A stretch of DNA of 64,000 nt from a virus (Duplodnaviria > Caudoviricetes), in IMG/VR virus record IMGVR_UViG_3300030330_003913; one strand, given 5' to 3'. Within the stretch, counting starts at the first letter, position 1; the number at the start of each line of letters is the position of its first letter. The position numbers and the translations under genes are program-made. The notes under the pieces were generated by a model. That model did not search any database, had not been told where the DNA came from, and saw only the letters and a program-made list of their open reading frames with translations. Positions 30,012 through 49,803 of this stretch are shown in pieces.

Positions 30012-30222
30012 CAAATAACTCCAATTGATTTCTGTCCTTTGGATATGGATTAAACCATTCACCATATTCATCTACCCACAATTCCCATCCACGAAGATTC
30101 TCTCTTTTACTATCTTTTTCATCGTACATAAGATTTAATTGTATGGTATGTAACATTTCAGGTGTTAATCTATCAGAACTTTCTAATGTTATTGCCAATT
30201 TACTATGTCTAATTTTCTTCAT
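29995..30222 (-). CDS. Hypothetical protein
   Basis: AGGAG RBS. Confidence 0.55.
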   Translation of the reverse strand: MKKIRHSKLAITLESSDRLTPEMLHTIQLNLMYDEKDSKRENLRGWELWVDEYGEWFNPYPKDRNQLELFDEDKK

Positions 30223-31824: not shown

Positions 31825-31833
31825 CTTTTTCTC

Positions 31834-32514: not shown

Positions 32515-32759
32515 AATCTACCTCCTAAATTACCTTCCTCGTCCAAATCTAACTCATCTATTTTGTTCTTTTTTTTCGGGTTTGCGTCATCTTGGTTTGG
32601 AATAATATTCAAATCCTCATTATCTATTATTTTGTCCATTGCGAAATGAAATATACCAGTTATGACAAATATTGGAAACATAATAAACCAAGTCATTACA
32701 TATCCGATAAGTACGACTACTTTACGGTTTAACTTTGTTATATTTGAATGTGGTTTCAT
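32511..32759 (-). CDS. Small membrane protein
   Basis: TM segment. Confidence 0.5.
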   Translation of the reverse strand: MKPHSNITKLNRKVVVLIGYVMTWFIMFPIFVITGIFHFAMDKIIDNEDLNIIPNQDDANPKKKNKIDELDLDEEGNLGGRL

Positions 32760-33145
32760 AATCTATCCATATCTTCTAATGTTTGTTTCCAATTTGTAAA
32801 TCTAATACCTTTATCATCAATATAAAACTTTGCGTTAGGTTTTCCCCAAACAACCCTATCTACAAATTTATACATATCGTGTTCTCTTAACCACTCTTCA
32901 ACTAACTCAACACCTGTCTTTTCATTAACCTTTGGTCTGTTAGGATTTGCCTTACAAGTAAAAAGAACTATTTTGTATTTCTTACTTATCTTCTCTAATG
33001 ATTCATAACTTCCTTCAATGACATCATCATAGATTGTACCATCATGAAAACCTTTACTATTTTTATGAATCACTCCATCAAAATCAATCGCGATGGTATT
33101 TTTTTCATCTTGATTAATTCTTTCTATTTCTTTATTAATGTCCAT
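32756..33145 (-). CDS. HAD-family phosphatase
   Basis: DFDGV, FTC, GKP, YIDDK. Confidence 0.85.
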   Translation of the reverse strand: MDINKEIERINQDEKNTIAIDFDGVIHKNSKGFHDGTIYDDVIEGSYESLEKISKKYKIVLFTCKANPNRPKVNEKTGVELVEEWLREHDMYKFVDRVVWGKPNAKFYIDDKGIRFTNWKQTLEDMDRL

Positions 33146-33806
33146 TGTTTAATCTCTTGTATAAAAACTCTGCGAAGTCAAAGTCAAGTGGTGTATCAAT
33201 ATCAACTGATTCTAAATCATCCATTACATAAAATAGTGGATTCTTTCCTACTACATTTTTATATTTTAACATGTTTTCTTTACTGATGATTGATATTCCA
33301 AAAGTTAAGTTATAAATTTCTGGTAAATCTTGTGAGTTAGGAACATTATCCAAATCATAATTCAAGGGTTTATTATCTAACCATAAATATTCTTTTACCC
33401 TTGATACTGAATTGTAACTATCGTGTCCCAAATCTAAACAATTATTAAATCTATTAATAAAATCATAATAAGTTTCAACCTTTACCAATGGTGCAGTACA
33501 TGGTGTGTGCATTATATAATCTGTATCTGTAGTAAATGCTAAGTTTTCCCAATGTTCTGTATTGGTACATTCATTACTTGCATAATACTCTTCTCTTCTG
33601 AAGTAACTAACACCATACTCTTTTGATATTTCAATCGCCTCATCTGAATTAGTGTTAACAACTATATCATCTATAGTATCAACTTGTTTTAGTGTTTCTA
33701 ACTTTAGTTTTAGTAATGTAGTATCACCAAAAGGTCGGAAGTTTTTGTCTATAACTCTTTGAGAACCAACTCTTATTGGAACTACTGCTGTAATTTTCTT
33801 TCTCAT
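33135..33806 (-). CDS. CMP-ulosonic acid synthetase (NeuA-type cytidylyltransferase)
   Basis: PIRVGSQRVIDKN, TAPL, SQDL, DIDTPLDF. Confidence 0.9.
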   Translation of the reverse strand: MRKKITAVVPIRVGSQRVIDKNFRPFGDTTLLKLKLETLKQVDTIDDIVVNTNSDEAIEISKEYGVSYFRREEYYASNECTNTEHWENLAFTTDTDYIMHTPCTAPLVKVETYYDFINRFNNCLDLGHDSYNSVSRVKEYLWLDNKPLNYDLDNVPNSQDLPEIYNLTFGISIISKENMLKYKNVVGKNPLFYVMDDLESVDIDTPLDFDFAEFLYKRLNNGH

Positions 33807-34555
33807 AGTCTATCTTTTATTTCCTTTGCTCTTGTATTGTACTCATTAGAAAATCTTTTGTAATGTAATGACTTACTCTCTAACCATAAGGATTCCCACT
33901 CCAACATCAATGAAATTATCGTACCCAACTTACTAATATTATTTTTATTTAATCCTAAGATTACATTTCGTGTCTCAATACAATCTAAGAATCCCTTATC
34001 AAATAAGTCTTGGATGAACTCTATACTCTTAGTACCAATATTACCACCCATATAGGTTTTCATTCCTAATTTTTTTGATTCTTGTAGGATATAAGTTACT
34101 ACTCTACAAATCTCATCCGACATTACATCTTGTTTTCCATAACCAAATGACTTTGTTAAATCAGAACGACCCACCACAACACCACTTAACATTTTACTTG
34201 TGGGTGAATCTAATATATCATTTAAGTTTTTATATGCCTGTACACTTTCAATGTTGATAAACTTATTACCATCATAAGGTAGTTTAGTAATAGACTCTGA
34301 AAACTTTTGTAGTGCAAACCTTGATTCAATCATTGGTGCAACTATACCATCAACTTCTAAATCAATACAACGATTTATATCAGAAATGGCTTCACACCCA
34401 CCAATCTTTACACTCAACTTTAAATCCAAGTCTCTACATATTTTAGATATCTTCCAAAGGTCTAAATCCAATACTCCTTCATCTTCAAAAGATTGTTTTA
34501 TACCTATGACACCTTGGTTCTTAAGTTCATCTAATAATTTTACTATATAACTCAT
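33803..34555 (-). CDS. HpcH/HpaI aldolase family protein
   Basis: IVAPMIES, NIES, VGRSDL. Confidence 0.75.
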   Translation of the reverse strand: MSYIVKLLDELKNQGVIGIKQSFEDEGVLDLDLWKISKICRDLDLKLSVKIGGCEAISDINRCIDLEVDGIVAPMIESRFALQKFSESITKLPYDGNKFINIESVQAYKNLNDILDSPTSKMLSGVVVGRSDLTKSFGYGKQDVMSDEICRVVTYILQESKKLGMKTYMGGNIGTKSIEFIQDLFDKGFLDCIETRNVILGLNKNNISKLGTIISLMLEWESLWLESKSLHYKRFSNEYNTRAKEIKDRL

Positions 34556-35153
34556 TTTGTTTTTCTTGTTTCTCTATTGTCTTTGGATGATATATACATA
34601 ATTCTTCATGTGGTGGTAGATGTGAATATGTTTTACAACCTGTAATTCTTTCATGTACAGGACTTTCCCATCTTATATCATCTCTGTTTCTAAAAACCCT
34701 ACTTTGATAGTCAGGAAAGTTTACCCAACCTTGTTCTGTTACTACCCAACCCCATTTTTTAATATGGTCTTGTGTAATTCCATCTACGGTATTGATTCTT
34801 GGAATCCATATTAAATCTACATCATTTATTTCTAATATTTGTTTTAATTGTGACATCAGAACTTTGTGTGGTATCTCATCTGCATCTAAATGAAATATGT
34901 AGTCACCTGTTGATTTCTCTATAACTGAATTTTTCTTTTTTGCAAAGTCATTATTTAATTCTTGTTCGTAAAAAACTATGTCAGGATATTGTCCATGTAT
35001 GTATTCATCAAACACTCTCCAACATTGATAATCAGAGTAATCATCACATATAACAATTTCATCACCCTCATCACGATGTTCAACAAGAAACTCAAGTAGT
35101 TTCTTTATCTCTTCGTGTTCATTATGAACGGTTATCCCATAAGTAATTTTCAT
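34527..35153 (-). CDS. GT2 glycosyltransferase
   Basis: ITVHNE, LDADE, PDYQ.R, VHE. Confidence 0.85.
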   Translation of the reverse strand: MKITYGITVHNEHEEIKKLLEFLVEHRDEGDEIVICDDYSDYQCWRVFDEYIHGQYPDIVFYEQELNNDFAKKKNSVIEKSTGDYIFHLDADEIPHKVLMSQLKQILEINDVDLIWIPRINTVDGITQDHIKKWGWVVTEQGWVNFPDYQSRVFRNRDDIRWESPVHERITGCKTYSHLPPHEELCIYHPKTIEKQEKQNELYSKIIR

Positions 35154-35635
35154 AATTCAAAATCAAATTCATTTATTTGTTGTTCTAAAAGTAAATCATC
35201 TATAGAATCTTTTGGTAAGAAACGATAATCATCTTCAAGATATACTCTTCTTTTCCTACACTCCCTTAAATTATAAGTTCTAAATATTTTATATTTTTCT
35301 ATAAAGTCTACTAAGGTCTTATATAATATTTTAATATCTGATTGTGATATATTATCTTCAAAGTTACCAATCTCTGTTGTACCTTTATCTTTACTTAGTC
35401 CACCAAATTGTTCAATCAGTGCCTGAAATCTTGATGCAGTTATTGGTCTTGTGACTGCAGTGTCTAATTGTAACCCAACAAAAAAGTATGTAAGTCTACC
35501 ATTCTTTTTTCTATATGGATATCTTGGACTCAAACACATTACGGTTCTTTTAATTCCTTTTGTCTCACCTTTACTTTTATAGATAAAAGATACTATTTGA
35601 CCTGGTTGTACTTTTGTCCATGTAGTGTTTTTCAT
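35150..35635 (-). CDS. Hypothetical phage protein
   Basis: ORF tiling. Confidence 0.55.
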   Translation of the reverse strand: MKNTTWTKVQPGQIVSFIYKSKGETKGIKRTVMCLSPRYPYRKKNGRLTYFFVGLQLDTAVTRPITASRFQALIEQFGGLSKDKGTTEIGNFEDNISQSDIKILYKTLVDFIEKYKIFRTYNLRECRKRRVYLEDDYRFLPKDSIDDLLLEQQINEFDFEL

Positions 35636-36075
35636 TCTTTAATAATTCCCATTTCTTTACATGCATTCATGAATTCATGTTGTCCAAATGCCTGTGCATT
35701 ATCAACATCTAATTTTTCTGTATGTCCTTCATATTGTGGGTCTTTTAATTCTTCAGGTGTTAATTTAGTTACTTGTGCAAACTTCCACATCCAATTATTT
35801 TTAGTTCCATCTGGATAAATAACTCCAAACTTACCCATATTTAATACTGATGGAAACCAAGTAATCTTTCTATCATAATCAAATACTGATATTTCATTCA
35901 TCAATTGTGTTGATGATTCAACTGCCTTTTCAAGTTCCTCTGTACCATTTTTATAATATGAATTACTTGTGAATCCACATTGAAAACAAATATAGGAAGT
36001 GAAATGTTCATTAGATTCCTCAAAACATTGGTCTTTACTAAAACAATTTGGACAATTTGTTTTTACTTCTGCCAT
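35632..36075 (-). CDS. Zn-ribbon hypothetical protein
   Basis: CPNC...CFQC. Confidence 0.6.
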   Translation of the reverse strand: MAEVKTNCPNCFSKDQCFEESNEHFTSYICFQCGFTSNSYYKNGTEELEKAVESSTQLMNEISVFDYDRKITWFPSVLNMGKFGVIYPDGTKNNWMWKFAQVTKLTPEELKDPQYEGHTEKLDVDNAQAFGQHEFMNACKEMGIIKE

Positions 36076-37397
36076 TATATTTTCCTTAACTTCGGTAAAC
36101 CTTTTTCTACTTTCTTTTCTTCCTTTTTCATATTAGGTAATTTAATATCAACTTGTTTTGGAAGTGTATCTAATTGTTGGTCAATAATTTGTTCTAATCT
36201 ATCTTTCATTTTATCATGTGTGAATTTTTTTCTATTGATTAACATTAGTTTCTTTCCTTTTACTGCATATTTAGTATAGTTTTTATATACATCTCTAAGT
36301 ATTTGAGATGCAAGTCCATAATTTACACTAAACCATTCACATGTTTCAATGAAAAATTCTTTTGGAAATGACCTTTCAGGTACCTTTACATACTGACCAT
36401 TTAGTTTTACGGTATTATTCTCATCAAGAAAGTCTTTTTGACCTGTAGCGACAGGTGCAATAACTGGTTTACCACTAAATGACGCCTCTAATAAAGGTCT
36501 TCCAAATCCCTCTCCATGTGTGAATGATAAATGTGCCTTTACTTTTGGATGATTATATAGTCCATTCATCTCATCATCAGTTAAGTCACCATGTAGTAAC
36601 CAAATCTTTGGAAGTATTTTTGCCTTAACTTCTGATTTAATATAATCAACTTTTTTTCTAATCTCTTCTCTATCAACAACTGAGAATCCTGCACTACTTG
36701 TTTTTAAAATAAGTCCTGGTGCATCTTTTTTGTTTTTGAATGATTCTAAAAATACTTTAATCATCATACCAACATCTTTTCTATCTTCACCAAGACCACC
36801 TTGTAACCAATGTCCTGTGTATAAAAAATTCCAATCAGTTGTTATCTTATTAAACTCATCAACAAGTTGTTTTGAAAATTCATTTGTTTCTTTATAAATA
36901 TCTGGGTCTGCACCTTCAAACAATGTAGTTAGTTGACTATTAACTTTTAATTGACCTATGACATTACCACCTTGGTCTTTTTTATCATATGATACATTTT
37001 TAAAATTAACCGCACTCCATTCTGATGTTATGATATTAACATCCATACGATTTAAACCCTCAACCCATGGTGCAGGTGGTATTGTGTGTTCAATACCTGC
37101 AGTTACACCTATGTTCTTTTTTGCAATTGGTTGGAATTCATTTGGTACACTAATCTGAAGATGTACTTCAGGTTGTCTTTCAATATTTGGTTGTCTTAAA
37201 ATTCTTTTGTGAATCTCTTTGTGTATTGGATTATGTTCTTCCAATGCATTCATTGGTGTATTACCCCATCTCATTGATTGTATTCTAACATCATATTTAT
37301 CTAACTCAATCAACGCTCTACAAATATCTCTTGTGTGATTACCATATCCACTTCTTGTGGCAACTGGTCCTGTAACTAATACTATTGGTTTACTCAT
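36075..37397 (-). CDS. GT4 glycosyltransferase
   Basis: SGYG, RKD, EGFGRPLLEA..GKPVI. Confidence 0.9.
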   Translation of the reverse strand: MSKPIVLVTGPVATRSGYGNHTRDICRALIELDKYDVRIQSMRWGNTPMNALEEHNPIHKEIHKRILRQPNIERQPEVHLQISVPNEFQPIAKKNIGVTAGIEHTIPPAPWVEGLNRMDVNIITSEWSAVNFKNVSYDKKDQGGNVIGQLKVNSQLTTLFEGADPDIYKETNEFSKQLVDEFNKITTDWNFLYTGHWLQGGLGEDRKDVGMMIKVFLESFKNKKDAPGLILKTSSAGFSVVDREEIRKKVDYIKSEVKAKILPKIWLLHGDLTDDEMNGLYNHPKVKAHLSFTHGEGFGRPLLEASFSGKPVIAPVATGQKDFLDENNTVKLNGQYVKVPERSFPKEFFIETCEWFSVNYGLASQILRDVYKNYTKYAVKGKKLMLINRKKFTHDKMKDRLEQIIDQQLDTLPKQVDIKLPNMKKEEKKVEKGLPKLRKI

Positions 37398-38818
37398 ACT
37401 TCATGTACCTCATAACTTTTTCTTGGTGTCCATTTTTCCCATGCAGTTTCCATATGGTCTTTGAATAGTTGACACATATGTCTTGTACTCATCATTCCAT
37501 CATCACTTGTTACAAACTCGTGTCCAAGTCTACCTGCTTCAGTTCTCTCTTCAGGTGTCTTATCATACCAATACCTTAATGCATCTGCAACATCAACCCA
37601 ATCACATCTATCATCCATAATGTATGGTGTTGGAACTGAACCTTGAACTGAACGAGTTCTCGGCCATACTGGTTTTACCCACTCTCCGTGAGTTAAGTCT
37701 TTGTTGTTTTCCCATTTTCTCCAATCGTGTAGTGACTCAATCTTTCCATAATCTTTATAAGTTAAAAGGTGGTCTCTGAATGTAAATCCACATTGGTCTT
37801 GCATACCACCTGTAACATTTACAATAATTGGTGTTCCACACATCAAACTTTCACAAGTTCCTAATCCAAATCCCTCATTGGATGCAATATTTACGGTAAG
37901 GTCAACTGCATTATATAAATGTCTCATCCCTTCATTGTTTAGTTTTTCCCTTGAGAACACTACATTTAAATCAGGACATAACTCTTGTACAACTGCAGGT
38001 AAATCAGTACCATTACTATCAACTGGTTCAGTATGTAGAACAAATCCTATCTTCTGTCTTTGTTCTTCAGTTAATCCATCCGCAAATGTTTTGAATGCCA
38101 TGATTAAATCTGAAGTCATTTTTCTTCTGATATTTCTATTGATAAAGAGAATAGTAAAATCTACTTCTTTACCTTTGAATAATTCATTTCTAACTTTGTT
38201 CACCTTGAATGTTTCATCTTCATCTACAACAGGATAAAAATATTTTTCATTGATTCCATGTGGAACATAAGTAGAGTCCCAATCTGTTCTTGGTTTGTTC
38301 TGACATACATTCTGAACGATATTGTGAGTTTGTTTTGAAATGTTCATAATTAAATCACAAGATTCATAATAAGGTTCGTTCCACCTTGGATAAGGTAAGT
38401 TATCCCAAATATTATAATAAAAGATAGGTATGTTTTGTCGTATCTCGTGTTCCATTTGATATAACCAAATCCAAAATCTTGGGTCTGTGTAGTGTAGGAT
38501 TGCATCTGGTTTTTCAATCAACAATAACTCTCTTACTAACTCTTGACTTCCATAACCACTAATGGGATATATTTTTAAACTGGCATCCTCAACACCTGTA
38601 TCTTCTCTCACTGCCTGATTCATATCAACTATCTTTCCATTATCAGGATGTTTGATAGCTCCACCGACTTGAACCCAATCATATTTATCTATAGTCCCAA
38701 AGACTATTTCTCTTGACATAGTACCGACACCACTATGCATTCTTAAATCATCTGACAACAATAAGATTTTCTTCTTTTTTGGTTTTGAAGAAACCTTTTG
38801 TAGTTTTGGTAATTGCAT
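37394..38818 (-). CDS. GT4 glycosyltransferase
   Basis: PHG, RN.RRK, EGFGLGTCES..GTPII. Confidence 0.9.
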   Translation of the reverse strand: MQLPKLQKVSSKPKKKKILLLSDDLRMHSGVGTMSREIVFGTIDKYDWVQVGGAIKHPDNGKIVDMNQAVREDTGVEDASLKIYPISGYGSQELVRELLLIEKPDAILHYTDPRFWIWLYQMEHEIRQNIPIFYYNIWDNLPYPRWNEPYYESCDLIMNISKQTHNIVQNVCQNKPRTDWDSTYVPHGINEKYFYPVVDEDETFKVNKVRNELFKGKEVDFTILFINRNIRRKMTSDLIMAFKTFADGLTEEQRQKIGFVLHTEPVDSNGTDLPAVVQELCPDLNVVFSREKLNNEGMRHLYNAVDLTVNIASNEGFGLGTCESLMCGTPIIVNVTGGMQDQCGFTFRDHLLTYKDYGKIESLHDWRKWENNKDLTHGEWVKPVWPRTRSVQGSVPTPYIMDDRCDWVDVADALRYWYDKTPEERTEAGRLGHEFVTSDDGMMSTRHMCQLFKDHMETAWEKWTPRKSYEVHEV

Positions 38819-39917: not shown

Positions 39918-40750
39918 TATAAATCCTTACATAATCTACATTTTTTGTGTTTCTCACACTTTTGATAATCTTTGTCAATAATATTACCATTTTCATCATA
40001 ACACTCAGACATAAATTCGTCTAATCTTGTCATAACCTTATTTATACTTGGTTTTCCACTTGCAGGTGTGAATACTTGGATTCTCTTTTGTGGATATGCG
40101 ATGTTCTCGTATAATCTTCTCTTTAATATTAAATATTCAACATCTATTTTATCCATTGGAATTTCTGTTTGGTCTGAGAAATATTTCTTGTATAATAATA
40201 ATTGATTAGTTTTGTTCTTGTCGGCTTTCATATATTTGTTCCAACCCATAGTTGCAGTCTTGATATCAATAATCTTAATACGACCTGTAGTCTTGTTGTG
40301 TATAACCACATCCATATATCCAATAAAAGTTAGTTTATTATCTAATTTCTGATTTAAGTCTAACTCAATACCAACTAATTCTGTATTCTTCTTAGGAAAG
40401 TAACTACTCTTTCTTTTTAAGAACTCATCAATAATATTAATACCATCTTGAAAAAACTCTTTCATATCTTCTAATGAAACATCAAAGTCATCACCATGTT
40501 GTTCCTTAGATTTCTTATAGTTCTCTTCCATTCTGTATTGTAGTATATCATGTAGTGGTAGAGAATCTGCATATTTGATTGTCTTATTGTAGTATGCAAC
40601 TAAGTATGCCTGTATGGTTTCATGTATGGCAGAACCAAATAAGGTATAAATATTACCATAAAATGTTGTTTGTTTGTCTACATAATCAAGTTTCCATGTG
40701 TATGGACATTTGTCCCACTTGGCAAACTGACTATAACTTATTCTACTCAT
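39917..40750 (-). CDS. PD-(D/E)XK exonuclease (Cas4/RecB-like)
   Basis: SYSQ...CP, FGSAIHE, GYMD...IIDIKT, Q...Y, terminal Cys cluster. Confidence 0.85.
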   Translation of the reverse strand: MSRISYSQFAKWDKCPYTWKLDYVDKQTTFYGNIYTLFGSAIHETIQAYLVAYYNKTIKYADSLPLHDILQYRMEENYKKSKEQHGDDFDVSLEDMKEFFQDGINIIDEFLKRKSSYFPKKNTELVGIELDLNQKLDNKLTFIGYMDVVIHNKTTGRIKIIDIKTATMGWNKYMKADKNKTNQLLLYKKYFSDQTEIPMDKIDVEYLILKRRLYENIAYPQKRIQVFTPASGKPSINKVMTRLDEFMSECYDENGNIIDKDYQKCEKHKKCRLCKDL

Positions 40751-41585
40751 CTATAATAGCTCTCCCTTTCATTTCTTCCCAATTACGATTATTACGAACT
40801 TGGTCATTGACATATTCTACTGCCTCCAATAACCCATAAGTTTCAAACTGATTAATAATCGCACTTAAATCTTTTGGTAAACAATGTCCACCATAACCAT
40901 AATCACCATCAGGACCAGGTACTGCCCAATGTGATTTACCTAACCTCTCATCATAGGTTGCATACTCTACAACTTTATCATAATCAATATCAATCTGTTC
41001 ACACACTTTATACATTTCATTTGCAAATGATACTTTAGTTGCCAAGAAGTTATTAATAAAATACTTTGTCATCTCTGCAGTTTTACTACCTGTCTTTACG
41101 ATAGTTGCCTGTGGAAATACTTTGGAATATATTTGTCTGAGTTTATTAGTTCCAATTCTATTACCACCTAATATAATTCTATTCTGATTCTTGAAATCCT
41201 CAAGGAAGTTTTCTTCTGTTAAGAACTCAGGATTAAATATTACAATAACATTTGAATAACTTTTATTAAACTTATCAGTAGTACCTGGTGGAATAGTTGA
41301 CTTAATCACCACAATAGGTTTATCCTTATCAGTATCTACATTATAATCAATTTCTTTAATTACCTCTTCTACAATACCTGTATAACAAGTTCCATCTTTT
41401 TTCATTGGTGTTGGAACACATACAAATATCACCTCACATTTATCAACCAAGTCTTTTAAATTAGGTACGGTAGACTTTGAAATATCAAATTTATCGTAGG
41501 TGTGTATGTAATCATAATGTGGTTCAAATCCAACCTTGATTGCAGTCCCAACATATCCTTGTCCTACTATTCCTATATTTTTCAT
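40743..41585 (-). CDS. UDP-glucose/GDP-mannose dehydrogenase family, short form
   Basis: GQGYVG, CVPTP, KSTIPPGT, NPEFL, GYGGHCLPKD; no C-terminal UDP-binding domain. Confidence 0.9.
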   Translation of the reverse strand: MKNIGIVGQGYVGTAIKVGFEPHYDYIHTYDKFDISKSTVPNLKDLVDKCEVIFVCVPTPMKKDGTCYTGIVEEVIKEIDYNVDTDKDKPIVVIKSTIPPGTTDKFNKSYSNVIVIFNPEFLTEENFLEDFKNQNRIILGGNRIGTNKLRQIYSKVFPQATIVKTGSKTAEMTKYFINNFLATKVSFANEMYKVCEQIDIDYDKVVEYATYDERLGKSHWAVPGPDGDYGYGGHCLPKDLSAIINQFETYGLLEAVEYVNDQVRNNRNWEEMKGRAIIDE

Positions 41586-41800: not shown

Positions 41801-42055
41801 TTAATCACTACTCGTCAATGTATGAATATCAGATATTAAATGTTCATTACCATTCATATCTGTAAACTTAGTAGGTAAATTATCATATTGACCACCTGGT
41901 ATCTTACCATGGTCTGTCATTGAACCTCTTTCTCTTTCTGGTGGTAATCCTTCTAAATCACAAGTATCCCATTGAATGTATTCATCTGAATCATCCACTT
42001 TGACTAATGGTTTACTTCTATTTAATGAATATAATTGATGTAGTGGAAATCTCAT
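41801..42055 (-). CDS. Hypothetical protein
   Basis: ORF tiling. Confidence 0.55.
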   Translation of the reverse strand: MRFPLHQLYSLNRSKPLVKVDDSDEYIQWDTCDLEGLPPERERGSMTDHGKIPGGQYDNLPTKFTDMNGNEHLISDIHTLTSSD

Positions 42056-42444
42056 TTAGCCCATTTACCTCTCGCAACTACTTGTGCCATTACTCCATAG
42101 TTTGATATATCTGAATAACTATCTATCAAACCTTCATTCTCTAAAGAACCATCATCACCTCTCATGATAAGAGTTTTGATTCTCTCTACTTTATCATTAA
42201 TCCTAAACCAAATACCCATTAAGGACAATCTCTTATCCTCATCATTTTTCAGTGCAGTACCAACTGCAATATTTTGTGGGCCGTAATCATGTTGTTTGTG
42301 TAAGAACAACTCATATTGGTCTTGTTGGATTTTCTTAAACTCTGATGTCATTTGTGGGTATTTTGTTTCCATATACTCTATGACATCCACATTCTGTTTG
42401 TTACCCTTAGGCGTATCCTTGATAACTTTCATATTATTCTCCAA
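42052..42444 (-). CDS. DUF1599 / nucleotide-modification-associated domain protein
   Basis: KQHDYG, R..DK..R, DSYSDISNY. Confidence 0.8.
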   Translation of the reverse strand: MENNMKVIKDTPKGNKQNVDVIEYMETKYPQMTSEFKKIQQDQYELFLHKQHDYGPQNIAVGTALKNDEDKRLSLMGIWFRINDKVERIKTLIMRGDDGSLENEGLIDSYSDISNYGVMAQVVARGKWAK

Positions 42445-42492: not shown

Positions 42493-43053
42493 TTATACAA
42501 TTTTATCAACAATTCCATATTCTAAACATTGTTCTGAATCAAAGTAAGAATCATTTCTTCCTGATAACTCCCAAAACCTTGCATCTTTATTTGTAACTTC
42601 ACCAAGTATCTCATTGATATCTTTTTGTAAATCTTTTAAGTGGTCAACACCTTTCATCACATCTGTAGTTTTACCTGCCTCAAATGCTGAACCCTCATGA
42701 ACCATTACGGTTCCATGTTTTGTCATTGTTCTTAAACCTGTACCACATGATAATAATACTGATGCAGCACTCATACAAGTTCCAACACAATGTGTATTAA
42801 CTTGAACAGGTAATCCTCTGATATAATCTACCAATCCCAACATAGCATAAACATCACCACCATATGAGGCAATATTCAAGTTAATAGATGTATTTGGATT
42901 AACTCTTTGTAGGTAATCAAGTTTGACAATTGTTGAGTATAGTGAATCAATATCAAACTCATAGTTCATATAGGTGGTATTGGTTTTTGAATTAACACCC
43001 CACTCCATTTCCTTCATATAAAATGATTCTTCATTTCTAAAATTCTTTCCCAT
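42493..43053 (-). CDS. clpP: ClpP-family protease
   Basis: SYGGDV, CMSAAS (Ser), MVHE (His), D.YF (Asp), YGIVD. Confidence 0.85.
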   Translation of the reverse strand: MGKNFRNEESFYMKEMEWGVNSKTNTTYMNYEFDIDSLYSTIVKLDYLQRVNPNTSINLNIASYGGDVYAMLGLVDYIRGLPVQVNTHCVGTCMSAASVLLSCGTGLRTMTKHGTVMVHEGSAFEAGKTTDVMKGVDHLKDLQKDINEILGEVTNKDARFWELSGRNDSYFDSEQCLEYGIVDKIV

Positions 43054-43484
43054 TATTTACTCCATATTTTTTTTAGTTGTTTATCTTCTACACCAAATTT
43101 CATTATAATTGTTTCTACTTGTTGTGGTGTTAATATTTCCAAGTAATCATCTACTTCCTTTGAACTACATTCAAAATATTCACACAAATATTCCATAACC
43201 CAAGTGTTCACTTTAGACTTATGTTTTGATTTTGTGTATTTAAGAAATGTTCTACCTTTTGGTAATACATCAATATAAAACTGATACACATTCTTAGGAG
43301 CCAACTCCCAATACTTTTGTATCTCATTCACTACTTGAATCCATTCTGACTTCATACTAAGAAATCTATGAATCATATAGTTACTCCATGTCTTTTTATC
43401 ACCCTCACTTAATGTATCCCAATATGTAGGACTCTGTACATTTGTGATTTGTTTTACATGGTCAAATAAAGATTTAGTCTTCAT
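43053..43484 (-). CDS. Clamp-loader small subunit (T4 gp62-like)
   Basis: LFD...I, YMIHRFLSM, VNE, F.KY.K. Confidence 0.75.
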   Translation of the reverse strand: MKTKSLFDHVKQITNVQSPTYWDTLSEGDKKTWSNYMIHRFLSMKSEWIQVVNEIQKYWELAPKNVYQFYIDVLPKGRTFLKYTKSKHKSKVNTWVMEYLCEYFECSSKEVDDYLEILTPQQVETIIMKFGVEDKQLKKIWSK

Positions 43485-44163
43485 TTTTTACTACTTTCCA
43501 ACCTGACTTTTTAATAATATTATCACTTCTACCTTTCCAATAAAAGAACTCACCATCAAATGTAAAAATATCTTTTGTATCATAATAATCTTTATCATGA
43601 TTTGATAACATAGACTTACCTCTTAAATGTAAGGTTTTATCCAACATGATATCCCAACCACTAATAAGTCTCATTCCAAGATGTATATCATCACCATCAG
43701 TAAAGTTAGTTCCCATAACTACTGGTATACATTCTGTAGAACCATAACCATGCATTACTTTTTGTACACCCAACTCTAACATAAACTCTATATCCTCTAT
43801 TGATGTTTCTTCCGCACCTATCAACATGTGTTCTATATAACTACAATTAGGTCTTAGTCCACTTTCTTTTAACATTCTTACCATTGTAGGTATTAATATT
43901 AATTTTGTGGGTTTTAAATTTATCATTTGTTCAAACACATTAGGTGAAAACTTATCACTATATATAGTTCCACCAATTTGTTCCATAGGTCTTGCCATAA
44001 TATATGACCCAATTGTATGTCTTGGTATAAAATCTAATAGTATATCTGACTTATTCAAGTTAAATACTTCTATATTTGAGTTGATTGAATGTTGTAAAGA
44101 TTCTTCACTATGTAAAACTTCTTTTGGTTTTCCTGTAGAACCTGTTGTATTAAATTTGTTCAT
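43474..44163 (-). CDS. Minimal adenylate-forming (ANL) enzyme
   Basis: TTGSTGKPK, YGSTE, TKD, GRSDNIIKKSG; only 229 aa. Confidence 0.8.
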   Translation of the reverse strand: MNKFNTTGSTGKPKEVLHSEESLQHSINSNIEVFNLNKSDILLDFIPRHTIGSYIMARPMEQIGGTIYSDKFSPNVFEQMINLKPTKLILIPTMVRMLKESGLRPNCSYIEHMLIGAEETSIEDIEFMLELGVQKVMHGYGSTECIPVVMGTNFTDGDDIHLGMRLISGWDIMLDKTLHLRGKSMLSNHDKDYYDTKDIFTFDGEFFYWKGRSDNIIKKSGWKVVKNED

Positions 44164-44602
44164 TCATAACTCTCTCTATTAATTTATTAAAGTCTGACCA
44201 AAATAGATAACATGGTGCATTATCTCTGAAACCAAATCTATTTGGATTATTTTTTTCTATAACTTTATTTTCATGTAACATTTCTGAAATTTTTATTGTT
44301 GATGAATTAAGAGTGGTTGACCACCAAAGTGTTTTTGTATTTGGATGTAACCTCTTTGTTAACAATAACAATTCTTTTATTAGAACTTTAGTGAGATTTT
44401 TATTTCTCTCTTGTTTATAAATATAAAAGTTTCTTGTGTTAATGACATTTTTTTTACACCAAATATTAATTAATCCAAGTGGTCTATCTTCAGTACTAAA
44501 TTTAAAAAATCTCATCCCTTCTTCATAAAAAACTTCAGAATTATCTTCTTGTATATCTTTAAATTCAGTATACTTTATTTCCTCTACCAATATGCATCGC
44601 AT
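44150..44602 (-). CDS. GNAT-fold protein
   Basis: FYIYKQERNKNLTKVLI, degenerate motif A. Confidence 0.5.
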   Translation of the reverse strand: MRCILVEEIKYTEFKDIQEDNSEVFYEEGMRFFKFSTEDRPLGLINIWCKKNVINTRNFYIYKQERNKNLTKVLIKELLLLTKRLHPNTKTLWWSTTLNSSTIKISEMLHENKVIEKNNPNRFGFRDNAPCYLFWSDFNKLIERVMNEQI

Positions 44603-46005
44603 GTTATAACCGAATTATTACTTTCACCTGCATGATATCTATCTTCTGTCTCTAAGTCTAATGAATAATACAAAGACTCTGAAGTTGTTAATGATATTGA
44701 TGATACTGATTGTGTTGTGAATCCATTCACTACAAATGTATCATTAACTTTGACATCTCTTATAGGTTTAAATTGATATTTTGAACCACTATAAACCATA
44801 ATTTGGTCTTCAGGATTCACTCTTGTTGAATTATTTAATTCATAATAACCCCAACTTGGTACTACAACCAAACTATTTACTGAACTTGTTGATTCACTTA
44901 AGTCACTTATAGAGCCTGTCCAATTACCTTTATCAAGAATAAATTGAGGCCAAGTTACATTGGTCGTTGATGATTCAAATGCAGTGTTTCGTTTTGGATA
45001 ATTGTTAATCACTACACTCTTTACAACTTCACCTGAACTAACATCACTAATTCTTTTTACCGAACCATTTGACATTGATACTGGTGTATTACCTTCAAAA
45101 TGTCCTGTTTGCCATATCCTTACATTATTAGAATCATAAATATTAGTATTTTGTGAACCAATAGTAGTTGAACCACTTGGTTGTCCAAATTTTCTATAGT
45201 TAGTTACATAGGTTTCATTTCTTGTAAGATATTTTACACTACCACTTCCAATCAATACTATACTTCTAAAAATTCTATATCTGTCATTATCTATTTCAGG
45301 TTCTATATATTGTTCTACATAATTAAAGTTATTATAAATTTGATTCCTATCTTCTGTAAAGTCTGTAAAGGATACACCTACTCCCATATCTTCAGTTGGG
45401 TCTTTGATAACAACATCAGGTATATTTGTTGGGTTACCAAATGACGATGAGATATTATTACCAAATGCAGGGAAGAAATCTTCACCTAAACTACCTGTTA
45501 TAAAATTACGAAAAGTAGTCTTGTTCTCACATAATACATCAACATTATGATAATTTAAATGTCCTTGTCTTAATACATAATGTGTTGAAGATGGTGTTGG
45601 TATAACCTCATCCCATAAATTATACTCATGTGTAAATGTACATCCTGAAGATGATAAACTTGAACTTAGGTGTTGTCTAAAAATATCTAAAGTATCTTCA
45701 ACTCTTTGTGGTTCTATATTGAAGTTTAGATAGTCCTCGTAGTAAGTACAGGTAGTATGACCAGAACTTGTAATATGACTGACTAACTCAGGAACATCAA
45801 ACATTACTTTCATTTTACCACTTAATCCAATATTAGTGTTCATTTCTAATAGTTTTATTGAACCACTTTGTGGTATCCAATCCATGGCATATATCATACC
45901 CTCATGTTCACTATCCCAATAGTCACTACCAGTAAACAGATTTCCTACCTGTAAACTTTTTTCTTTTAATAAATTTGCGTAATTTTGTCTTTGTGAATCA
46001 TTCAT
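44584..46005 (-). CDS. Circularly permuted ATP-grasp ligase fused to degenerate Hint domain
   Basis: D..LLEMNTN precedes VIKDP...GVGV and EQYIEP; C-terminal NTPVSMSNGSVKRISDV..GE / YSLDLE..DRY Hint blocks. Confidence 0.65.
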   Translation of the reverse strand: MNDSQRQNYANLLKEKSLQVGNLFTGSDYWDSEHEGMIYAMDWIPQSGSIKLLEMNTNIGLSGKMKVMFDVPELVSHITSSGHTTCTYYEDYLNFNIEPQRVEDTLDIFRQHLSSSLSSSGCTFTHEYNLWDEVIPTPSSTHYVLRQGHLNYHNVDVLCENKTTFRNFITGSLGEDFFPAFGNNISSSFGNPTNIPDVVIKDPTEDMGVGVSFTDFTEDRNQIYNNFNYVEQYIEPEIDNDRYRIFRSIVLIGSGSVKYLTRNETYVTNYRKFGQPSGSTTIGSQNTNIYDSNNVRIWQTGHFEGNTPVSMSNGSVKRISDVSSGEVVKSVVINNYPKRNTAFESSTTNVTWPQFILDKGNWTGSISDLSESTSSVNSLVVVPSWGYYELNNSTRVNPEDQIMVYSGSKYQFKPIRDVKVNDTFVVNGFTTQSVSSISLTTSESLYYSLDLETEDRYHAGESNNSVITCDAYW

Positions 46006-46020
46006 ATCTATAAATATTGA

Positions 46021-47433
46021 TTATTTGAGAAAGTTTTCATTTTCCATCCAATTGTAACCAACATATCCCATCTTCTTATGTATACTGATTGCCTTGTTGT
46101 TCCAACCATCAACATATGCCAAGTCATATTTTATATTCTTTCTAATAAGATAGTTTGTAATATAAGTGTAGAAATGTTCTATTAGTTTACCATGTTTTCT
46201 TGAAGTTCTGTATTTAGGTAAACATGCCCAATATCCACCATAAGAATGGTCTTTAGGTAAGTTCATATCAATATTCCACTCGTGGTCATAAAAAGTAAAT
46301 TCACCCATAAACCACCAATTCCATTGTATCATTTTACCATCGTGAAACATTGCACACAAATTGTGTCCATCTTTTATTCTTTTCTTTGCAGTTTCTAAAT
46401 CCCATAACCAAGTTTTTCTTGTCTCTGTGGTAATCCAATCCATATTCAATCTGTCCCATTCTTTGAGACCTTGTAGAATTTCCCATGTCCACCCATCAAG
46501 TTGTTCAAGTGTATCAATGTCTTCATAGATAACCTCACCAATATCTGGTGTTTGGATTTCATATTCATGTATAGGTTTTCTACCAAACCAATAAGTTTGA
46601 TGGTCATCAGATAACCAACCATCATTACCATCAATTATATTTTTTCTAACTTCAGGTATAAAAGTGTTATCAATATTGAAGTTAAAGTTGATTTTGGTTT
46701 CATCTATGGTTTTGTCATACTTACTTACAACATCTACAAATCTTTCTAATCCCCAACCAAAACATGCAGTCATCTCTGAGTCTTGTATATTAAATTTATC
46801 AACAAACTTTCTACCATGTAGATTAAATGAACCTATTGCAACATGTCTATTTTCGTTAGGAATCCATGCTCTAATCTCAATCTTAGAACCACTATTGATT
46901 TGTACTTTTCTTTTTAACTCTGATTTATCACCAAAGAATGGGTCTGATGCAACTTCATAAAAATATTTGATACCAAGTTGGTCTAACATTTGTGATGTTA
47001 AAGTCATTGCCTTACTTAGATTATCCTCACAATATTTCTCAGTACCAACAAACACTATCTCTGATATAGTGAAGTTAAACATTCTTTCTAAATCATTACA
47101 TTCTTCTTCTATTCGTGTACATTTACTTGTCATTACATAAGATTTATCTGTAACACTTTTATCTTTTAAGAAACTATAACAATGATAACATCCTGTAGGT
47201 GAACACATTCCTTTTTCTTCACCATGGTATGAATTAATTATAGATGCCTGATGTGAGAATGATTCCATATATCCTGTCTTATAGGCATTATCCATGGAAA
47301 GATGAGATGGTGTCCATAGTCTTTCAGAGTTGAATTCGTCTGACATCTTGTATGTTAGATTTTCTAAACCAACTAAACTCTTAACTATGTCACCACTTAT
47401 TACTTGTAGTCCATCTCCAACTTTAGTATACAT
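46021..47433 (-). CDS. SerRS-like amino acid:[carrier protein] ligase fused to GNAT
   Basis: PTGCYHCY, CTRIE..RMFNF..SE, ASDPFFG, SFNLH, TACFGWGLER; C-terminal PKYR..G / N.KAI..HKKMGY. Confidence 0.8.
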   Translation of the reverse strand: MYTKVGDGLQVISGDIVKSLVGLENLTYKMSDEFNSERLWTPSHLSMDNAYKTGYMESFSHQASIINSYHGEEKGMCSPTGCYHCYSFLKDKSVTDKSYVMTSKCTRIEEECNDLERMFNFTISEIVFVGTEKYCEDNLSKAMTLTSQMLDQLGIKYFYEVASDPFFGDKSELKRKVQINSGSKIEIRAWIPNENRHVAIGSFNLHGRKFVDKFNIQDSEMTACFGWGLERFVDVVSKYDKTIDETKINFNFNIDNTFIPEVRKNIIDGNDGWLSDDHQTYWFGRKPIHEYEIQTPDIGEVIYEDIDTLEQLDGWTWEILQGLKEWDRLNMDWITTETRKTWLWDLETAKKRIKDGHNLCAMFHDGKMIQWNWWFMGEFTFYDHEWNIDMNLPKDHSYGGYWACLPKYRTSRKHGKLIEHFYTYITNYLIRKNIKYDLAYVDGWNNKAISIHKKMGYVGYNWMENENFLK

Positions 47434-47663
47434 TACTCACTCGGTTGAATTTGACTCATCATATTTTTTGGTATTGTACCACAATTACCACATGCAAATA
47501 CTTGAATCGGAACTATTGCCTCTTTACCATTTGGACTCATCAATGCAGATATTCTTTTCAAAAAGAAAGATTGTATGAAAGATGCGTTTCCACATTCCTC
47601 ACATTGAATTGTATCTGCCTTTGAAATATCTAATGGTTCTTGATATGTTCTTTCATCATTCAT
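47433..47663 (-). CDS. Zn-ribbon protein
   Basis: CEECG...CGNCG. Confidence 0.65.
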   Translation of the reverse strand: MNDERTYQEPLDISKADTIQCEECGNASFIQSFFLKRISALMSPNGKEAIVPIQVFACGNCGTIPKNMMSQIQPSE

Positions 47664-48583
47664 TTTATTTTTCCTATTATTTCTATGAACATTGCCATAA
47701 TGTTTATCTCTTTATCCACAACTACTGCATCACTCTGTTGATATTGTGATAGAATCAATATACATTCTGCCACATGTCCTCTACCCCAATCATCTACGGT
47801 ATCAAATAATAATCTGAATAAATCAGAGAAATCTGTTACCTTTGAATCTGCAAGTACTTGTCTTATGTTTTTAAACGAATTCTTTTTATCTTGTGTCTTG
47901 AGTATTTCTAACACTTTAACTTTGTAATCATTCTGAATACTCATTCCCTCATCAATAACCAATTCACCATTGACAACTTGTCTCTGTGCACCATTGATTA
48001 CTCTTCTCAAATCAGGAAACCCACTATTAACTATTGTTACTATATCTTCAATATCTGACTTGATTCCTTCTTTTGTTAAGATAGTATTTAGATGAACTGC
48101 AACTTGTTTTCTATCTGGTGGAACTATTTGAAATGATTGACACCTTGATTGTATTGGGTCTATGATTCTCTCAACATAATTACAAGTTAAAATAAACCTA
48201 CAATGTTTTGAAAATGTTTCCATAAGATTACGAAGTGCGGCCTGTGATGCAGGTGTAATGTAATCTGCCTCATCAAGTATTACAACTTTCATATTGGAAA
48301 ACCCAATAGTAGATGCAAAGTTCTTTACTTTGTCTCTGACCATTTCAAGTTTCCTTTCATCAGATGCATTGATATATAGATAATCACATTCTATATTATT
48401 AACGAGTAGTTTTGCGAGAGTGGTTTTACCTGTACCAGCCCTACCAAACAATAGAAGGTGTGGTAAATCTCCACTCTCAAGATACAACTTGACTTTACTC
48501 TTTAGGTGTTCATTACCTATATATGTGTCAAGCGATGTAGGTCGGTACTTTTCTACCCATAGGGAATTTTTTATTTCATCCAT
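47660..48583 (-). CDS. Clamp-loader ATPase subunit (T4 gp44/RFC small-like)
   Basis: WVEKYRP, GRAGTGKT, NASDER, DEAD, SRC. Confidence 0.95.
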   Translation of the reverse strand: MDEIKNSLWVEKYRPTSLDTYIGNEHLKSKVKLYLESGDLPHLLLFGRAGTGKTTLAKLLVNNIECDYLYINASDERKLEMVRDKVKNFASTIGFSNMKVVILDEADYITPASQAALRNLMETFSKHCRFILTCNYVERIIDPIQSRCQSFQIVPPDRKQVAVHLNTILTKEGIKSDIEDIVTIVNSGFPDLRRVINGAQRQVVNGELVIDEGMSIQNDYKVKVLEILKTQDKKNSFKNIRQVLADSKVTDFSDLFRLLFDTVDDWGRGHVAECILILSQYQQSDAVVVDKEINIMAMFIEIIGKIK

Positions 48584-49803
48584 TATAACTTTCTCCAAAT
48601 CCAAATTGGTTCACAAAATCTTTTATCTTTAGTCTCTTCTGCCTTTTGTATTGTTGAGTCTTGAAACCTCTCATCAGATGCTCGTGCCATTCCTGCACCA
48701 CCACTATTTGGTCTCTTTGCCATCTCCATACCAATACAACCTTGATATTCTGAATCACTAAAGGTACTTATAAAATCATTCATAGGATTACAAATCTCTA
48801 CCATGTTTCTTTCACCTGCAGTTCGTGCAAATACATCTGCAATGTTCACTAATAAATATCCACCACTCTTGATAGAAGGCCATATTTTTTTTATTGATTT
48901 CTGTAGAAAGTTTTTATTCCAACTATCAATGTCTTTATACCTAACCCAACTTTGTGTATCATCATAACTATATCTTTCAACACTAAAGTAAGGTGGTGAT
49001 GTGAATACGGTATCATACATATTTTCTTTGTACTCAAAATCCTCTGCAGGTGATTCTATCATTAGACTTCTCTTATTAACTTCAAACATAGTTCGGTGTT
49101 TTTCATAGAACCATTTTTGTTCTTCATAGATTGGATGATTTTCTTTTCGTGGGTCTATCCCAAGATAAAACTCACCTGTCTCACTCGCATAGAATCCTGC
49201 AAGTCTATCACCCCAACCTGCACTAAAGTCTAAGATACTCTTACTCTCTAACTTATCGTATAATACCTTGGCAATATTTGGTTTGAATTGAGAACAAATA
49301 TACTTTCTCAATCCAATCATTACACGAAATGCACTCTTATCAATCTTAGGTAACTTCAGAGAGTATGCAGACCCAATCAAGGTAGTCATAAACTTATGAC
49401 TTTCCCATGTTCTATGTGGGCCTGGTGCAATAGTTCCATCAACACTCCAACGATTCTTTTGTTGGAAGTAATTACTTGCATCGTTACCTGTATTGTTTCT
49501 TTTGAAGTATTGTTGTTTACCCTCAAAAGTTAAATCATATCTATATTCTGTACCCTCACGAGCAAACCATTCTCCTTCAACTAAAATTTCATTATGTCTC
49601 ATTCCTTTTAGTTTCTGAAGTTGTTTTAATGCATCCTTCTCGGTGATGTCCATGTATGGTGGTGGGTAAGACATCGCAACCTTTGCAAGACTTTCTCTTA
49701 CATCTTGTTTATCAAAGGTTTTTTTGATGTAGTCCCACTCTTCCTCATCTATGAAGAGATAAGGTTCCATATCATAGAATTTGTCAAAGTACGATAGATA
49801 CAT
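48583..49803 (-). CDS. DNA amino-methyltransferase (m4C/m6A)
   Basis: LDFSAGWGDR motif I; FTSPPY motif IV. Confidence 0.8.
   Translation of the reverse strand: MYLSYFDKFYDMEPYLFIDEEEWDYIKKTFDKQDVRESLAKVAMSYPPPYMDITEKDALKQLQKLKGMRHNEILVEGEWFAREGTEYRYDLTFEGKQQYFKRNNTGNDASNYFQQKNRWSVDGTIAPGPHRTWESHKFMTTLIGSAYSLKLPKIDKSAFRVMIGLRKYICSQFKPNIAKVLYDKLESKSILDFSAGWGDRLAGFYASETGEFYLGIDPRKENHPIYEEQKWFYEKHRTMFEVNKRSLMIESPAEDFEYKENMYDTVFTSPPYFSVERYSYDDTQSWVRYKDIDSWNKNFLQKSIKKIWPSIKSGGYLLVNIADVFARTAGERNMVEICNPMNDFISTFSDSEYQGCIGMEMAKRPNSGGAGMARASDERFQDSTIQKAEETKDKRFCEPIWIWRKL

Follow-up and report, generated by a model that had tools for sequence, protein, structure and literature searches.

A variable island between the clamp-loader genes of marine T4-like phages encodes a candidate pathway for tRNA-independent aminoacyl and acyl amide ligation

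Organization of the gp44-gp62 locus

We have analyzed a 64,000-nucleotide stretch of viral DNA (Duplodnaviria; Caudoviricetes; IMG/VR record IMGVR_UViG_3300030330_003913), referred to here as the window, in which a cassette of four genes lies between homologues of the T4 clamp-loader genes 44 and 62. An earlier note, made from the sequence alone, had placed four minus-strand open reading frames (ORFs) between a gp44-like gene with its adjoining Zn ribbon gene and a gp62-like gene, and all four lie where it placed them. Gene 1 (46021-47433) and gene 2 (44584-46005) are ORFs of 470 and 473 aa, gene 3 (44150-44602) is a 150-aa ORF for a small GNAT-like protein, and gene 4 (43474-44163) is a 229-aa ORF for a short ANL core. 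They are consecutive on the minus strand, with junctions consisting of a 15-nt spacer or 11-19-nt overlaps; a terminator scan found no minus-strand terminator-like site inside the cassette, and a promoter scan gave only chance-level results. The predicted products comprise three different ATP-dependent carboxylate-activating folds (class II aminoacyl-tRNA synthetase (aaRS)-like, ATP-grasp and ANL) and two GNAT-type domains, as the note had described. None of the genes is matched by PADLOC, and genes 1-3 have no match in PHROGs.

The upstream border of this island is a gp44-like AAA+ clamp-loader ATPase gene (47660-48604, minus strand; phrog_168, E 3.6e-82; PF00004, PF13177 and a weak Gp44_lid match), and the downstream border is a gene for a gp62-like clamp-loader small subunit (43053-43484, minus strand; phrog_225, E 2.2e-18; PF16790 at E 5.9e-4, which is below the cut-off). 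With these PHROG matches the flanking genes supply both the AAA+ and the small subunit of a T4-type clamp loader. The gene for the 76-aa Zn ribbon (47433-47663, minus strand; CxxC...CxxC) is part of the backbone and lies outside the cassette, because it is the sole gene between gp44 and gp62 in both a related contig with an empty site (L092) and Microcystis phage Mel-JY01. Its core is conserved and its C-terminal tail is variable, and the four ribbon cysteines are its only ones. We considered whether this protein could serve as a LysW-like or other carrier for the pathway proposed below, and rejected the idea as the main reading given its presence in empty sites, its lack of cysteines beyond those of the ribbon, and its unconserved tail.

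An aaRS-like core fused to a GNAT domain

The N-terminal portion of gene 1 (residues 1-247; 46693-47433, minus strand) resembles a Zn-type seryl-tRNA synthetase (SerRS)-like amino-acid-activating core. PF00587 matches residues 76-235 (E 3.7e-8), and the closest Protein Data Bank (PDB) chain by sequence is the Gly:[carrier protein] ligase Bll0957 (phmmer E 4.6e-13), followed by type-2 SerRS (E 3.4e-7). An AlphaFold model built on an alignment of 12 homologues (mean pLDDT 81.7) superimposes residues 1-247 on Bll0957 chain 3mey_A with Z 24.2 (root-mean-square deviation (rmsd) 3.0, 236 residues aligned), above the methanogen-type SerRS at Z 20.4, and Foldseek likewise matches the model to Bll0957 (E 1.1e-15). 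The motifs PxxCY, DPFFG, SFNxH and TxC..G.ER, which had been quoted together with a Cys/Glu/Cys Zn triad as typical of amino acid:[carrier protein] ligases, are all found. C82, E125 and C224 align with the Zn ligands of Bll0957 (chain positions 151, 196 and 299, which we take to be the residues numbered Cys131/Glu176/Cys279) and, with the motif-2 arginine R107 and the motif-3 arginine R231, are invariant among the 12 homologues. A tRNA-binding domain is absent, as had been proposed: the protein starts at the core, and SerRS chains align with it only through their catalytic parts.

The NCBIfam model for these ligases, NF005479, matches gene 1 at E 2.1e-27 with a score of 95.9 bits, and the equivalog cut-off of 357 bits is not reached. 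With a carrier lacking and the score far under the cut-off, gene 1 is a homologue of amino acid:[carrier protein] ligases with a new architecture. The family is small, comprising 11 clusters of 450-479 residues in a word-indexed search, marine wherever the sample source is named; the full-length architecture was found in a viral Atlas cluster only, and bacterial clusters match the first ~245 residues only. A canonical arrangement of such a ligase was seen elsewhere, in an unverified faecal 'Bacteriophage sp.' record (MT835751.1, L109; 3434-6487), where a stand-alone ligase of 377 aa is followed by a PP-binding carrier protein of 86 aa and then by a weakly BtrH-like protein; an ABC-2 transporter gene near this ligase suggests that the contig may be bacterial.

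The remainder of the protein has a predicted GNAT fold (residues 261-461; 46051-46653, minus strand), with Z scores over residues 253-461 of 12.9 to the glucosamine N-acetyltransferase 5kf1, 12.5 to VipF (6wqb) and 11.9 to the aminoacyl-transferase domain of MprF (6lv0), in agreement with the GNAT fusion claimed for this gene. Sequence profiles point the same way: a 32%-identical homologue (P0015) reaches PF00583 at E 8.9e-6, and the domain itself has a weak profile match to 2jlm (E 0.032). In a comparison by hhalign it is homologous to the small stand-alone GNATs found at the same locus in related phages (probability 97.2%, E 3.1e-11), and gene 1 of the window is therefore the core GNAT of the island with an aaRS-like domain added at its N-terminus. 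The motif A pyrophosphate loop for acyl-coenzyme A (acyl-CoA), R/Q-x-x-G-x-G/A, is not found in the fused GNATs, which read YRTSRKHGKLI or YRYKRGLL at this position; the stand-alone island paralogues have YRGKGLG. A complex prediction for the products of genes 1 and 2 returned a score of 0.00, which weighs neither way.

An ATP-grasp protein with a Hint-fold domain

Gene 2 has no match in Pfam, PHROG or NCBIfam, and an exhaustive phmmer search recovered 27 representatives of its family among 1.84 billion clusters. Its predicted model (pLDDT 77.7, pTM 0.80) has two parts, a permuted ATP-grasp and a Hint-like domain, and the assignment that had been made from the letters is thus borne out by the fold matches. 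Residues 1-298 (45112-46005, minus strand) belong with ATP-grasps of the eukaryotic glutathione synthetase/glutathionylspermidine synthetase (GspS)/YgiC type: Z is 11.6 to 3kaj and 5oeu, 11.5 to 7uka and 11.0 to 2io7, the matches as a group being eukaryotic (homo)glutathione synthetases, YgiC, glutathionylspermidine synthetase and trypanothione synthetase at Z 9.7-11.6, and classical RimK/ArgX ATP-grasps reach only about 5. Foldseek matches this half to 7uk6 (E 2.8e-7). D42, E54, N56 and K201 are invariant across 14 homologues, so that the fold, the E-x-N metal-binding block (residues 54-56) and the conserved lysine of the glutathione synthetase/GspS branch are all present. Eukaryotic glutathione synthetase has a permuted ATP-grasp order, and the position of the E-x-N block near the N-terminus of gene 2 fits such an order.

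The C-terminal domain (residues 299-473; 44584-45111, minus strand) has a Hint/BIL fold. Over residues 294-473 the model gives Z 17.1 to 6tmm (rmsd 2.3, 141 aligned), 16.7 to 2lwy and 15.7 to hedgehog 1at0, the matches being to BIL domains, inteins and the hedgehog autoprocessing domain. The residues needed for catalysis appear to be gone: a histidine stands at the Cys1 position, there is no N-terminal Cys, Ser or Thr and no conserved TxxH block, the protein ends in ..CDAYW without the terminal His-Asn, and the family has no invariant column in this domain. The Hint domain is thus predicted to be catalytically dead in the window. Some relatives of gene 2 have additional Hint modules, matching PT-HINT or Intein_splicing, and matches to AXH and Hom_end_hint are also seen among the relatives. 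Shorter paralogues of 212-277 aa that consist of the ATP-grasp half without any Hint domain are seen in more distant islands (L020:236-916, L022:3201-3839, L014:4852-5685), and those of L020 and L022 immediately precede the gene for the aaRS-like fusion.

A GNAT-like protein and a short ANL core

The earlier call of gene 3 as a GNAT stands as far as its Atlas feature (language-model) neighbours are concerned, which at 0.96 are GNAT clusters, and falls short at the profile level, where the match to PF13673 (E 0.011) is below the cut-off. Comparison with the island GNATs by hhalign gives a probability of 17.7%, no similarity to the C-terminal domain of gene 1 is found by the same method, and a word-indexed search returns only its own cluster; we describe the product as weakly GNAT-like. 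Its motif A reads RNKNLT, with both glycines lost, and a 33%-identical paralogue that takes its place in three relatives (L001, L005 and L007) has the canonical RTKGWG. The notion that gene 3 supplies a missing N-terminal ANL subdomain was rejected, there being no PF00501 match and a paralogue that exists without any ANL.

Gene 4 matches PF00501 (E 1e-18) over profile positions 170-336 of 384 only, which agrees with its description as a minimal ANL enzyme. Its core motifs A3 (the P-loop), A5, A7 and A8 are present as TTGSTGKPK, GYGSTE, YYDTKD and GRSDNIIKKSGWKV. The protein starts at the A3 P-loop and stops eight residues past the A8 hinge motif, so that both the N-terminal subdomain (about 170 residues) and the C-terminal subdomain with the A10 lysine are absent. 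This truncation appears to be a kept feature and not fresh decay, since a 51%-identical homologue has the same end point after the A8 hinge and omega for gene 4 is 0.12-0.36.

The junction of genes 3 and 4 (44146-44166, minus strand) exists in two forms that differ by a one-base indel. In the close relative L003 (10832-11959) the two genes form a single ORF of 375 aa, corresponding to 43474-44602 of the window; in the window, L004 and L006 a difference of one base yields two overlapping ORFs. Contigs of other marine runs have the split form with no difference at all, among them those of run X15 (43958-44358), a run that carries no flag as a possible source.

The gp44-gp62 interval is a variable island

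A gp62-anchored scan identified at least 599 related viral contigs, of which 80 were fetched and 40 contain a complete gp44-gp62 interval. Its length ranges from 256 nt, in the empty site of L092, to 8.4 kb. A member of the gene 2 family is present in 35 of the 40, with only 22-30% identity between types, against 66-100% for the flanking gp44 and gp62. All 35 occupied islands also have a GNAT partner, which lies upstream of the ATP-grasp-Hint gene wherever a distance could be scored: it is a small stand-alone protein in 27, a GNAT-like protein of 190-199 aa in four, and an aaRS-like-GNAT fusion in four. Of the stand-alone cases 28 were scored: in 24 the GNAT lies no more than 100 nt from the ATP-grasp-Hint gene, and in the remaining four the gap is about 1 kb (no distance was obtained for three loci); in its four loci the fusion gene directly adjoins the ATP-grasp-Hint gene on the upstream side, replacing the stand-alone GNAT. 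The constant core of the island is thus a GNAT followed by an ATP-grasp-Hint protein.

Other modules are more sporadic. The aaRS-like domain is found in four of the 40 intervals and the short ANL in five, three of these without an aaRS-like gene (L053, L057 and L086), where it precedes the GNAT and ATP-grasp-Hint genes in the order Zn ribbon, ANL, GNAT-like, ATP-grasp-Hint and three 2-oxoglutarate (2OG) oxygenases. Genes 1-4 occur together only in the very close relatives L003, L004 and L006; in L001, L005 and L007, genes 1 and 2 are retained, the ANL is missing and the gene 3 paralogue is present. The suggestion that the four genes form one conserved cassette is therefore not upheld: the short ANL moves independently, and the cassette is a mosaic of modules in a hypervariable island and not a fixed unit. 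Two non-homologous adenylating domains have been joined to island GNATs, the aaRS-like domain by fusion and the short ANL by adjacency, with fusion as well in L003; the window accordingly has two pairs of an adenylating domain and a GNAT, besides the ATP-grasp.

The typical island is different from that of the window. In L049, for example, it consists of a radical SAM/SPASM gene, the Zn ribbon, a GNAT, an ATP-grasp with three Hint-type modules and four PF13640 oxygenases. Many relatives have a radical SAM/SPASM gene between gp44 and the four-cysteine Zn ribbon (L049:2893-4008, L027:5140-6258, L062:867-2024), and in typical islands three to four tandem 2OG oxygenases of the PF13640 prolyl-hydroxylase type follow the ATP-grasp-Hint gene (L049:7010-9340, L057:4952-6613). 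L057 carries in addition a QueC-like PP-loop gene and an Asp/Arg-hydroxylase-like gene.

The earlier note had raised the prospect of relatives with an empty gp44-gp62 site, and such sites are seen in both L092 and Microcystis phage Mel-JY01. The latter is the nearest cultured phage (PolB 44% identical), and in it gp44, the Zn ribbon and gp62 are consecutive genes without any insertion. A nucleotide search against cultured phages matched only 113 bases of gp44, in Pelagibacter phage Mosig. The lineage in which the island resides is that of abundant, uncultured marine T4-like phages.

Selection, occurrence and transcripts

Genes 1, 2 and 4 are under purifying selection, with omega of 0.11-0.29 for genes 1 and 2 and the value given above for the ANL gene. 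At least five studies, dated 2014 to 2025, have the exact stretch in their marine metagenomes, and it is therefore a persistent natural genotype. RNA runs cover a small share of the stretch; one metatranscriptome has contigs of a 92-98% relative over 46516-47100, which does not prove transcription.

Many metagenome contigs break at the module borders, at 44109-44150 and 47444-47528. One short contig (run X6) joins position 44145 to 47444 through 28 other letters and hints at a coexisting variant in which the Zn ribbon is directly followed by the ANL and genes 1-3 are absent, the shorter side of this junction being only 35 letters long.

Genes elsewhere in the window

The window as a whole is AT-rich (~31% G+C). 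Its ORF content and its GC skew both place nearly all of the genes on the minus strand. Directly upstream of gp44 is a gene for a 406-aa protein (48583-49803) with weak DNA-methylase matches only (PF01555, E 9.7e-4), which is conserved across all relatives and duplicated in some. A ClpP-like protease gene lies downstream of the cassette, as does the gp62-like gene, and just downstream of these are genes for a DUF1599 'nucleotide modification associated domain 1' protein (42052-42444) and for a 280-aa protein resembling UDP-glucose/GDP-mannose dehydrogenases (40743-41585), which seems short for that family. Farther away, a glycan block at 24426-38818 contains two GT2 and two GT4-like genes together with radical SAM/SPASM, DUF2334, NAD epimerase/dehydratase, MptE-like, cytidylyltransferase and HpcH-type aldolase genes.

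A proposed pathway and its alternatives

We propose, with a probability of about one half, that this stretch encodes a tRNA-independent aminoacyl/acyl amide-ligation pathway housed in a variable clamp-loader island. The gene set probably decorates a putative acceptor with amino acids, without tRNA and without a carrier protein of its own. The Zn site of gene 1 would bind a small alpha-amino acid, which the enzyme would convert to the aminoacyl-adenylate, and the fused GNAT would pass the aminoacyl group to an acceptor amine, either directly or by way of a pantetheine or CoA thioester, with no tRNA or phage-encoded carrier protein taking part. The ATP-grasp of gene 2 would then link a carboxylate to an amine, by way of an acyl-phosphate, to give a further amide; the dead Hint domain of the protein would presumably act only as a binding or adaptor module, and genes 3 and 4 could constitute a second acyl-activation and transfer unit. 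The most likely acceptor would be an amino sugar or glycan of the virion or the host envelope, with a peptide or protein next.

Several observations argue for this. As the earlier note had remarked, neither a carrier protein nor a phosphopantetheinyl transferase is seen in the window, where a motif scan in any frame found no ACP-like (acyl carrier protein-like) motif; PF00550 likewise has no match in the record of the nearest 80-kb relative. Stand-alone GNATs keep the CoA-loop R-x-x-G-x-G (RGKGLG, and RTKGWG in the gene 3 paralogue), and its glycines are gone from both of the GNATs that have an adenylating domain as a fusion partner or as a paired neighbour. Because of this loss, together with the lack of a carrier protein, we favour a GNAT that may take its acyl group from the neighbouring adenylate, the alternative being a pantetheine or CoA thioester made in situ. 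The tight packing of the cassette in one direction, with no internal minus-strand terminator, also counts in its favour. For a sugar acceptor speak the distant homologues of gene 1, which lie amid genes for glycosyltransferases, a DegT aminotransferase, a PIG-L deacetylase, sulfotransferases and a PfkB kinase, and the presence in the window of GT2, GT4, epimerase, cytidylyltransferase and UDP-sugar-dehydrogenase-like genes.

Other points weigh against the proposal, and the assignment of the acceptor is its weakest part. No glycosyltransferase is found inside the window's island, and the tandem prolyl-hydroxylase-type 2OG oxygenases and radical SAM/SPASM genes of most islands fit peptides no less well than sugars. 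Homologues of gene 1 load phosphopantetheine thiols, so that a host carrier is possible. The GNAT assignment of gene 3 is weak, and gene 4, without the A10-lysine subdomain that is normally needed for adenylation, may not activate anything. The motif A argument stands on few sequences, and the co-occurrence of genes 1 and 2 in four lineages is expected by chance because the gene 2 family is near-universal in occupied islands.

The possibility that gene 1 loads its amino acid on the phosphopantetheine of host holo-ACP, from which the GNAT domain would take the aminoacyl group, is rather unlikely in our estimation, even though gene 1 is nearest in both sequence and fold to carrier-protein ligases and, by the titles of entries 4h2s and 3pzc, Bll0957 was crystallized in the presence of its carrier protein and of CoA. 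Basic residues K170 and K174 are conserved in the segment of gene 1 that aligns with Bll0957 chain positions 235-248, a FabA/ApeI-type hot-dog gene follows the 32%-identical gene 1 homologue, and there is a precedent in SbzI, a GNAT that takes carrier-bound acyl groups and accepts aminoacyl-carrier proteins too (PMC11685415). Yet neither the window nor the 80-kb relative shows a carrier protein or phosphopantetheinyl transferase, the phage protein has a fused transferase where the canonical locus has an adjacent carrier, and the score of 95.9 bits is far from 357. We find it unlikely, too, that the island adds amino acids to side chains or termini of a phage or host protein, such as a virion fibre or a small peptide, in the manner of RimK, tubulin ligases or EpmA acting on EF-P, with the Hint domain holding the protein substrate. 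The ATP-grasp is nearest to small-molecule ligases (glutathione synthetase, GspS and YgiC, Z 11-11.6) and distant from RimK/TTL (Z about 5), the oxygenase and radical SAM genes that would fit a peptide are missing from the window's own island, and no conserved candidate substrate gene is found there, the Zn ribbon having a variable tail and occurring also in empty sites. What commends a protein target is that most islands do carry three to four tandem PF13640 oxygenases, with an Asp/Arg-hydroxylase-like gene and a radical SAM/SPASM gene besides, and that Hint folds act on proteins and relatives of gene 2 keep active-looking Hint modules (PT-HINT). In L014 there are GT25 genes, and collagen galactosyltransferases are members of that family. 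The arrays of tandem dioxygenases in cyanophages have been discussed as modifiers of peptides or secondary metabolites (Iyer et al., PMC2938197). The same proximity of the ATP-grasp to the glutathione, glutathionylspermidine and trypanothione synthetases and to YgiC could instead indicate a free small metabolite, for instance a polyamine bearing an aminoacyl or acyl group or a short N-acyl peptide, that acts on the host or on competitors and is made by the logic of N-acetylaspartylglutamate (GNAT then ATP-grasp) or of glutathionylspermidine. An Orn/Arg/diaminopimelate decarboxylase gene in the island of the 32%-identical gene 1 homologue and an MFS/Acatn-type transporter gene in L020 are in keeping with this, but neither a decarboxylase nor an exporter is found near the window's cassette, and such a product would leave the Hint-fold adaptor and the hypervariability of the island unexplained; we consider it quite improbable.

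The position of the island between clamp-loader genes, with a DNA-methylase-like gene upstream and a DUF1599 gene downstream, raises the question of DNA hypermodification, in which replication-module genes would attach amino acids to modified bases of the phage DNA. This seems very improbable, in that a scan of ORFs in and near the island revealed no hydroxymethylase, base kinase, aGPT-Pplase-type or TET/JBP-type gene, the oxygenases of relatives are of the prolyl-hydroxylase type (PF13640), and the DUF1599 and methylase-like genes are backbone genes kept in relatives with other island contents; moreover, the known amino-acid-bearing DNA bases are made by other types of enzyme. Least credible of all is a decaying mosaic, in which recombination at a hotspot would have left the truncated ANL, dead Hint and weak GNAT as remnants with no function. 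An ANL without two of its subdomains, a Hint domain without its nucleophile, genes 3 and 4 standing one base from their fused form, and the many contig breaks at both module borders could be taken as its signature, but it is disfavoured by the omega values given above for genes 1, 2 and 4, by a truncation point shared with the 51%-identical homologue, and by the identical stretch in marine metagenomes of at least five studies.

Our preferred reading thus remains that of an amide-ligation pathway with no tRNA or own carrier, and the interpretation first offered for the locus is, as a whole, partly supported. A more far-reaching version, which we hold to be possible if doubtful, is that gene 1 would be a new kind of enzyme, whose class II aaRS-like site passes the aminoacyl group directly to the GNAT with no tRNA, CoA or carrier, and that it would do so within a lineage-wide, rapidly diversifying GNAT and ATP-grasp-Hint system that writes variable amide decorations on molecules of the virion or host surface and has recruited non-homologous adenylating domains, aaRS-like or short ANL, more than once.

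Comparison with known systems

Every fold in the cassette belongs to a known superfamily; literature searches produced no description of the fusion in phages or of the GNAT and ATP-grasp-Hint core, in keeping with the earlier note, which knew of no such phage system. The closest relatives of gene 1 are the amino acid:[carrier protein] ligases (Bll0957 of Bradyrhizobium; NF005479), with which it shares a truncated methanogen-type SerRS core, the Cys/Glu/Cys Zn site and motifs 2 and 3. The phage core of ~245 residues is shorter than the Bll0957 chains of 296-346 residues, and the phage protein differs further in being fused to a GNAT, in having no carrier encoded nearby, in scoring below the equivalog cut-off and in having a full architecture seen only in viral sequences. 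We know of no physiological product for these ligases, and a fused transferase in place of the carrier would offer a direct handle on the function of this branch of aaRS-like enzymes. It could also establish a way of transferring aminoacyl groups that needs neither tRNA nor carrier.

In mycothiol biosynthesis the PIG-L deacetylase MshB frees a sugar amine, the aaRS-like ligase MshC adds an amino acid to it through an adenylate without tRNA, and the GNAT MshD acts next. The combination of deacetylase, aaRS-like ligase and GNAT has a parallel here, in that a PIG-L gene follows a 48%-identical gene 1 homologue in L020. The resemblance is functional only and the ligases are not homologous, MshC being a class I CysRS homologue and the phage core class II and SerRS-like; the phage ligase and GNAT are moreover one protein, and the window has no PIG-L gene. 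In D-alanylation (DltA/DltC) and lipid A glycylation (AlmE/AlmF/AlmG), too, an adenylating enzyme activates an amino acid that is then placed on a glycopolymer or glycolipid of the envelope. The order of events would be alike in the proposed pathway, but those systems use a full-length ANL, a dedicated carrier and membrane acyltransferases, none of which is present here.

Gene 2 has its best fold matches over residues 1-298 in GspS, YgiC, YjfC and eukaryotic glutathione synthetase, with which it shares the invariant E-x-N block and lysine; it differs from them in having only 8-12% identity, no amidase domain and an added C-terminal Hint fold. That fold connects it to the Hint superfamily (BIL domains, inteins, hedgehog and AXH), of which AXH is likewise a non-catalytic derivative; the window protein is without a Cys, Ser or Thr at position 1, a conserved TxxH block or the terminal HN.

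In this abundant lineage of marine phages, with at least 599 related contigs, the clamp-loader slot is a hotspot of diversity, and learning what the island makes would bear on how marine phages vary their own surfaces or those of their hosts. Relatives of this island with three to four tandem PF13640 oxygenases resemble the tandem 2OG-oxygenase islands of T4-like cyanophages, described for Syn9 (Iyer et al. 2010, PMC2938197); the GNAT and ATP-grasp-Hint core and the aaRS-like fusion are not described in the passages of that paper that deal with those islands, and the variant in the window is free of oxygenases. Knowledge of the island's product would bear as well on the long-noted and unexplained dioxygenase arrays of cyanophages.

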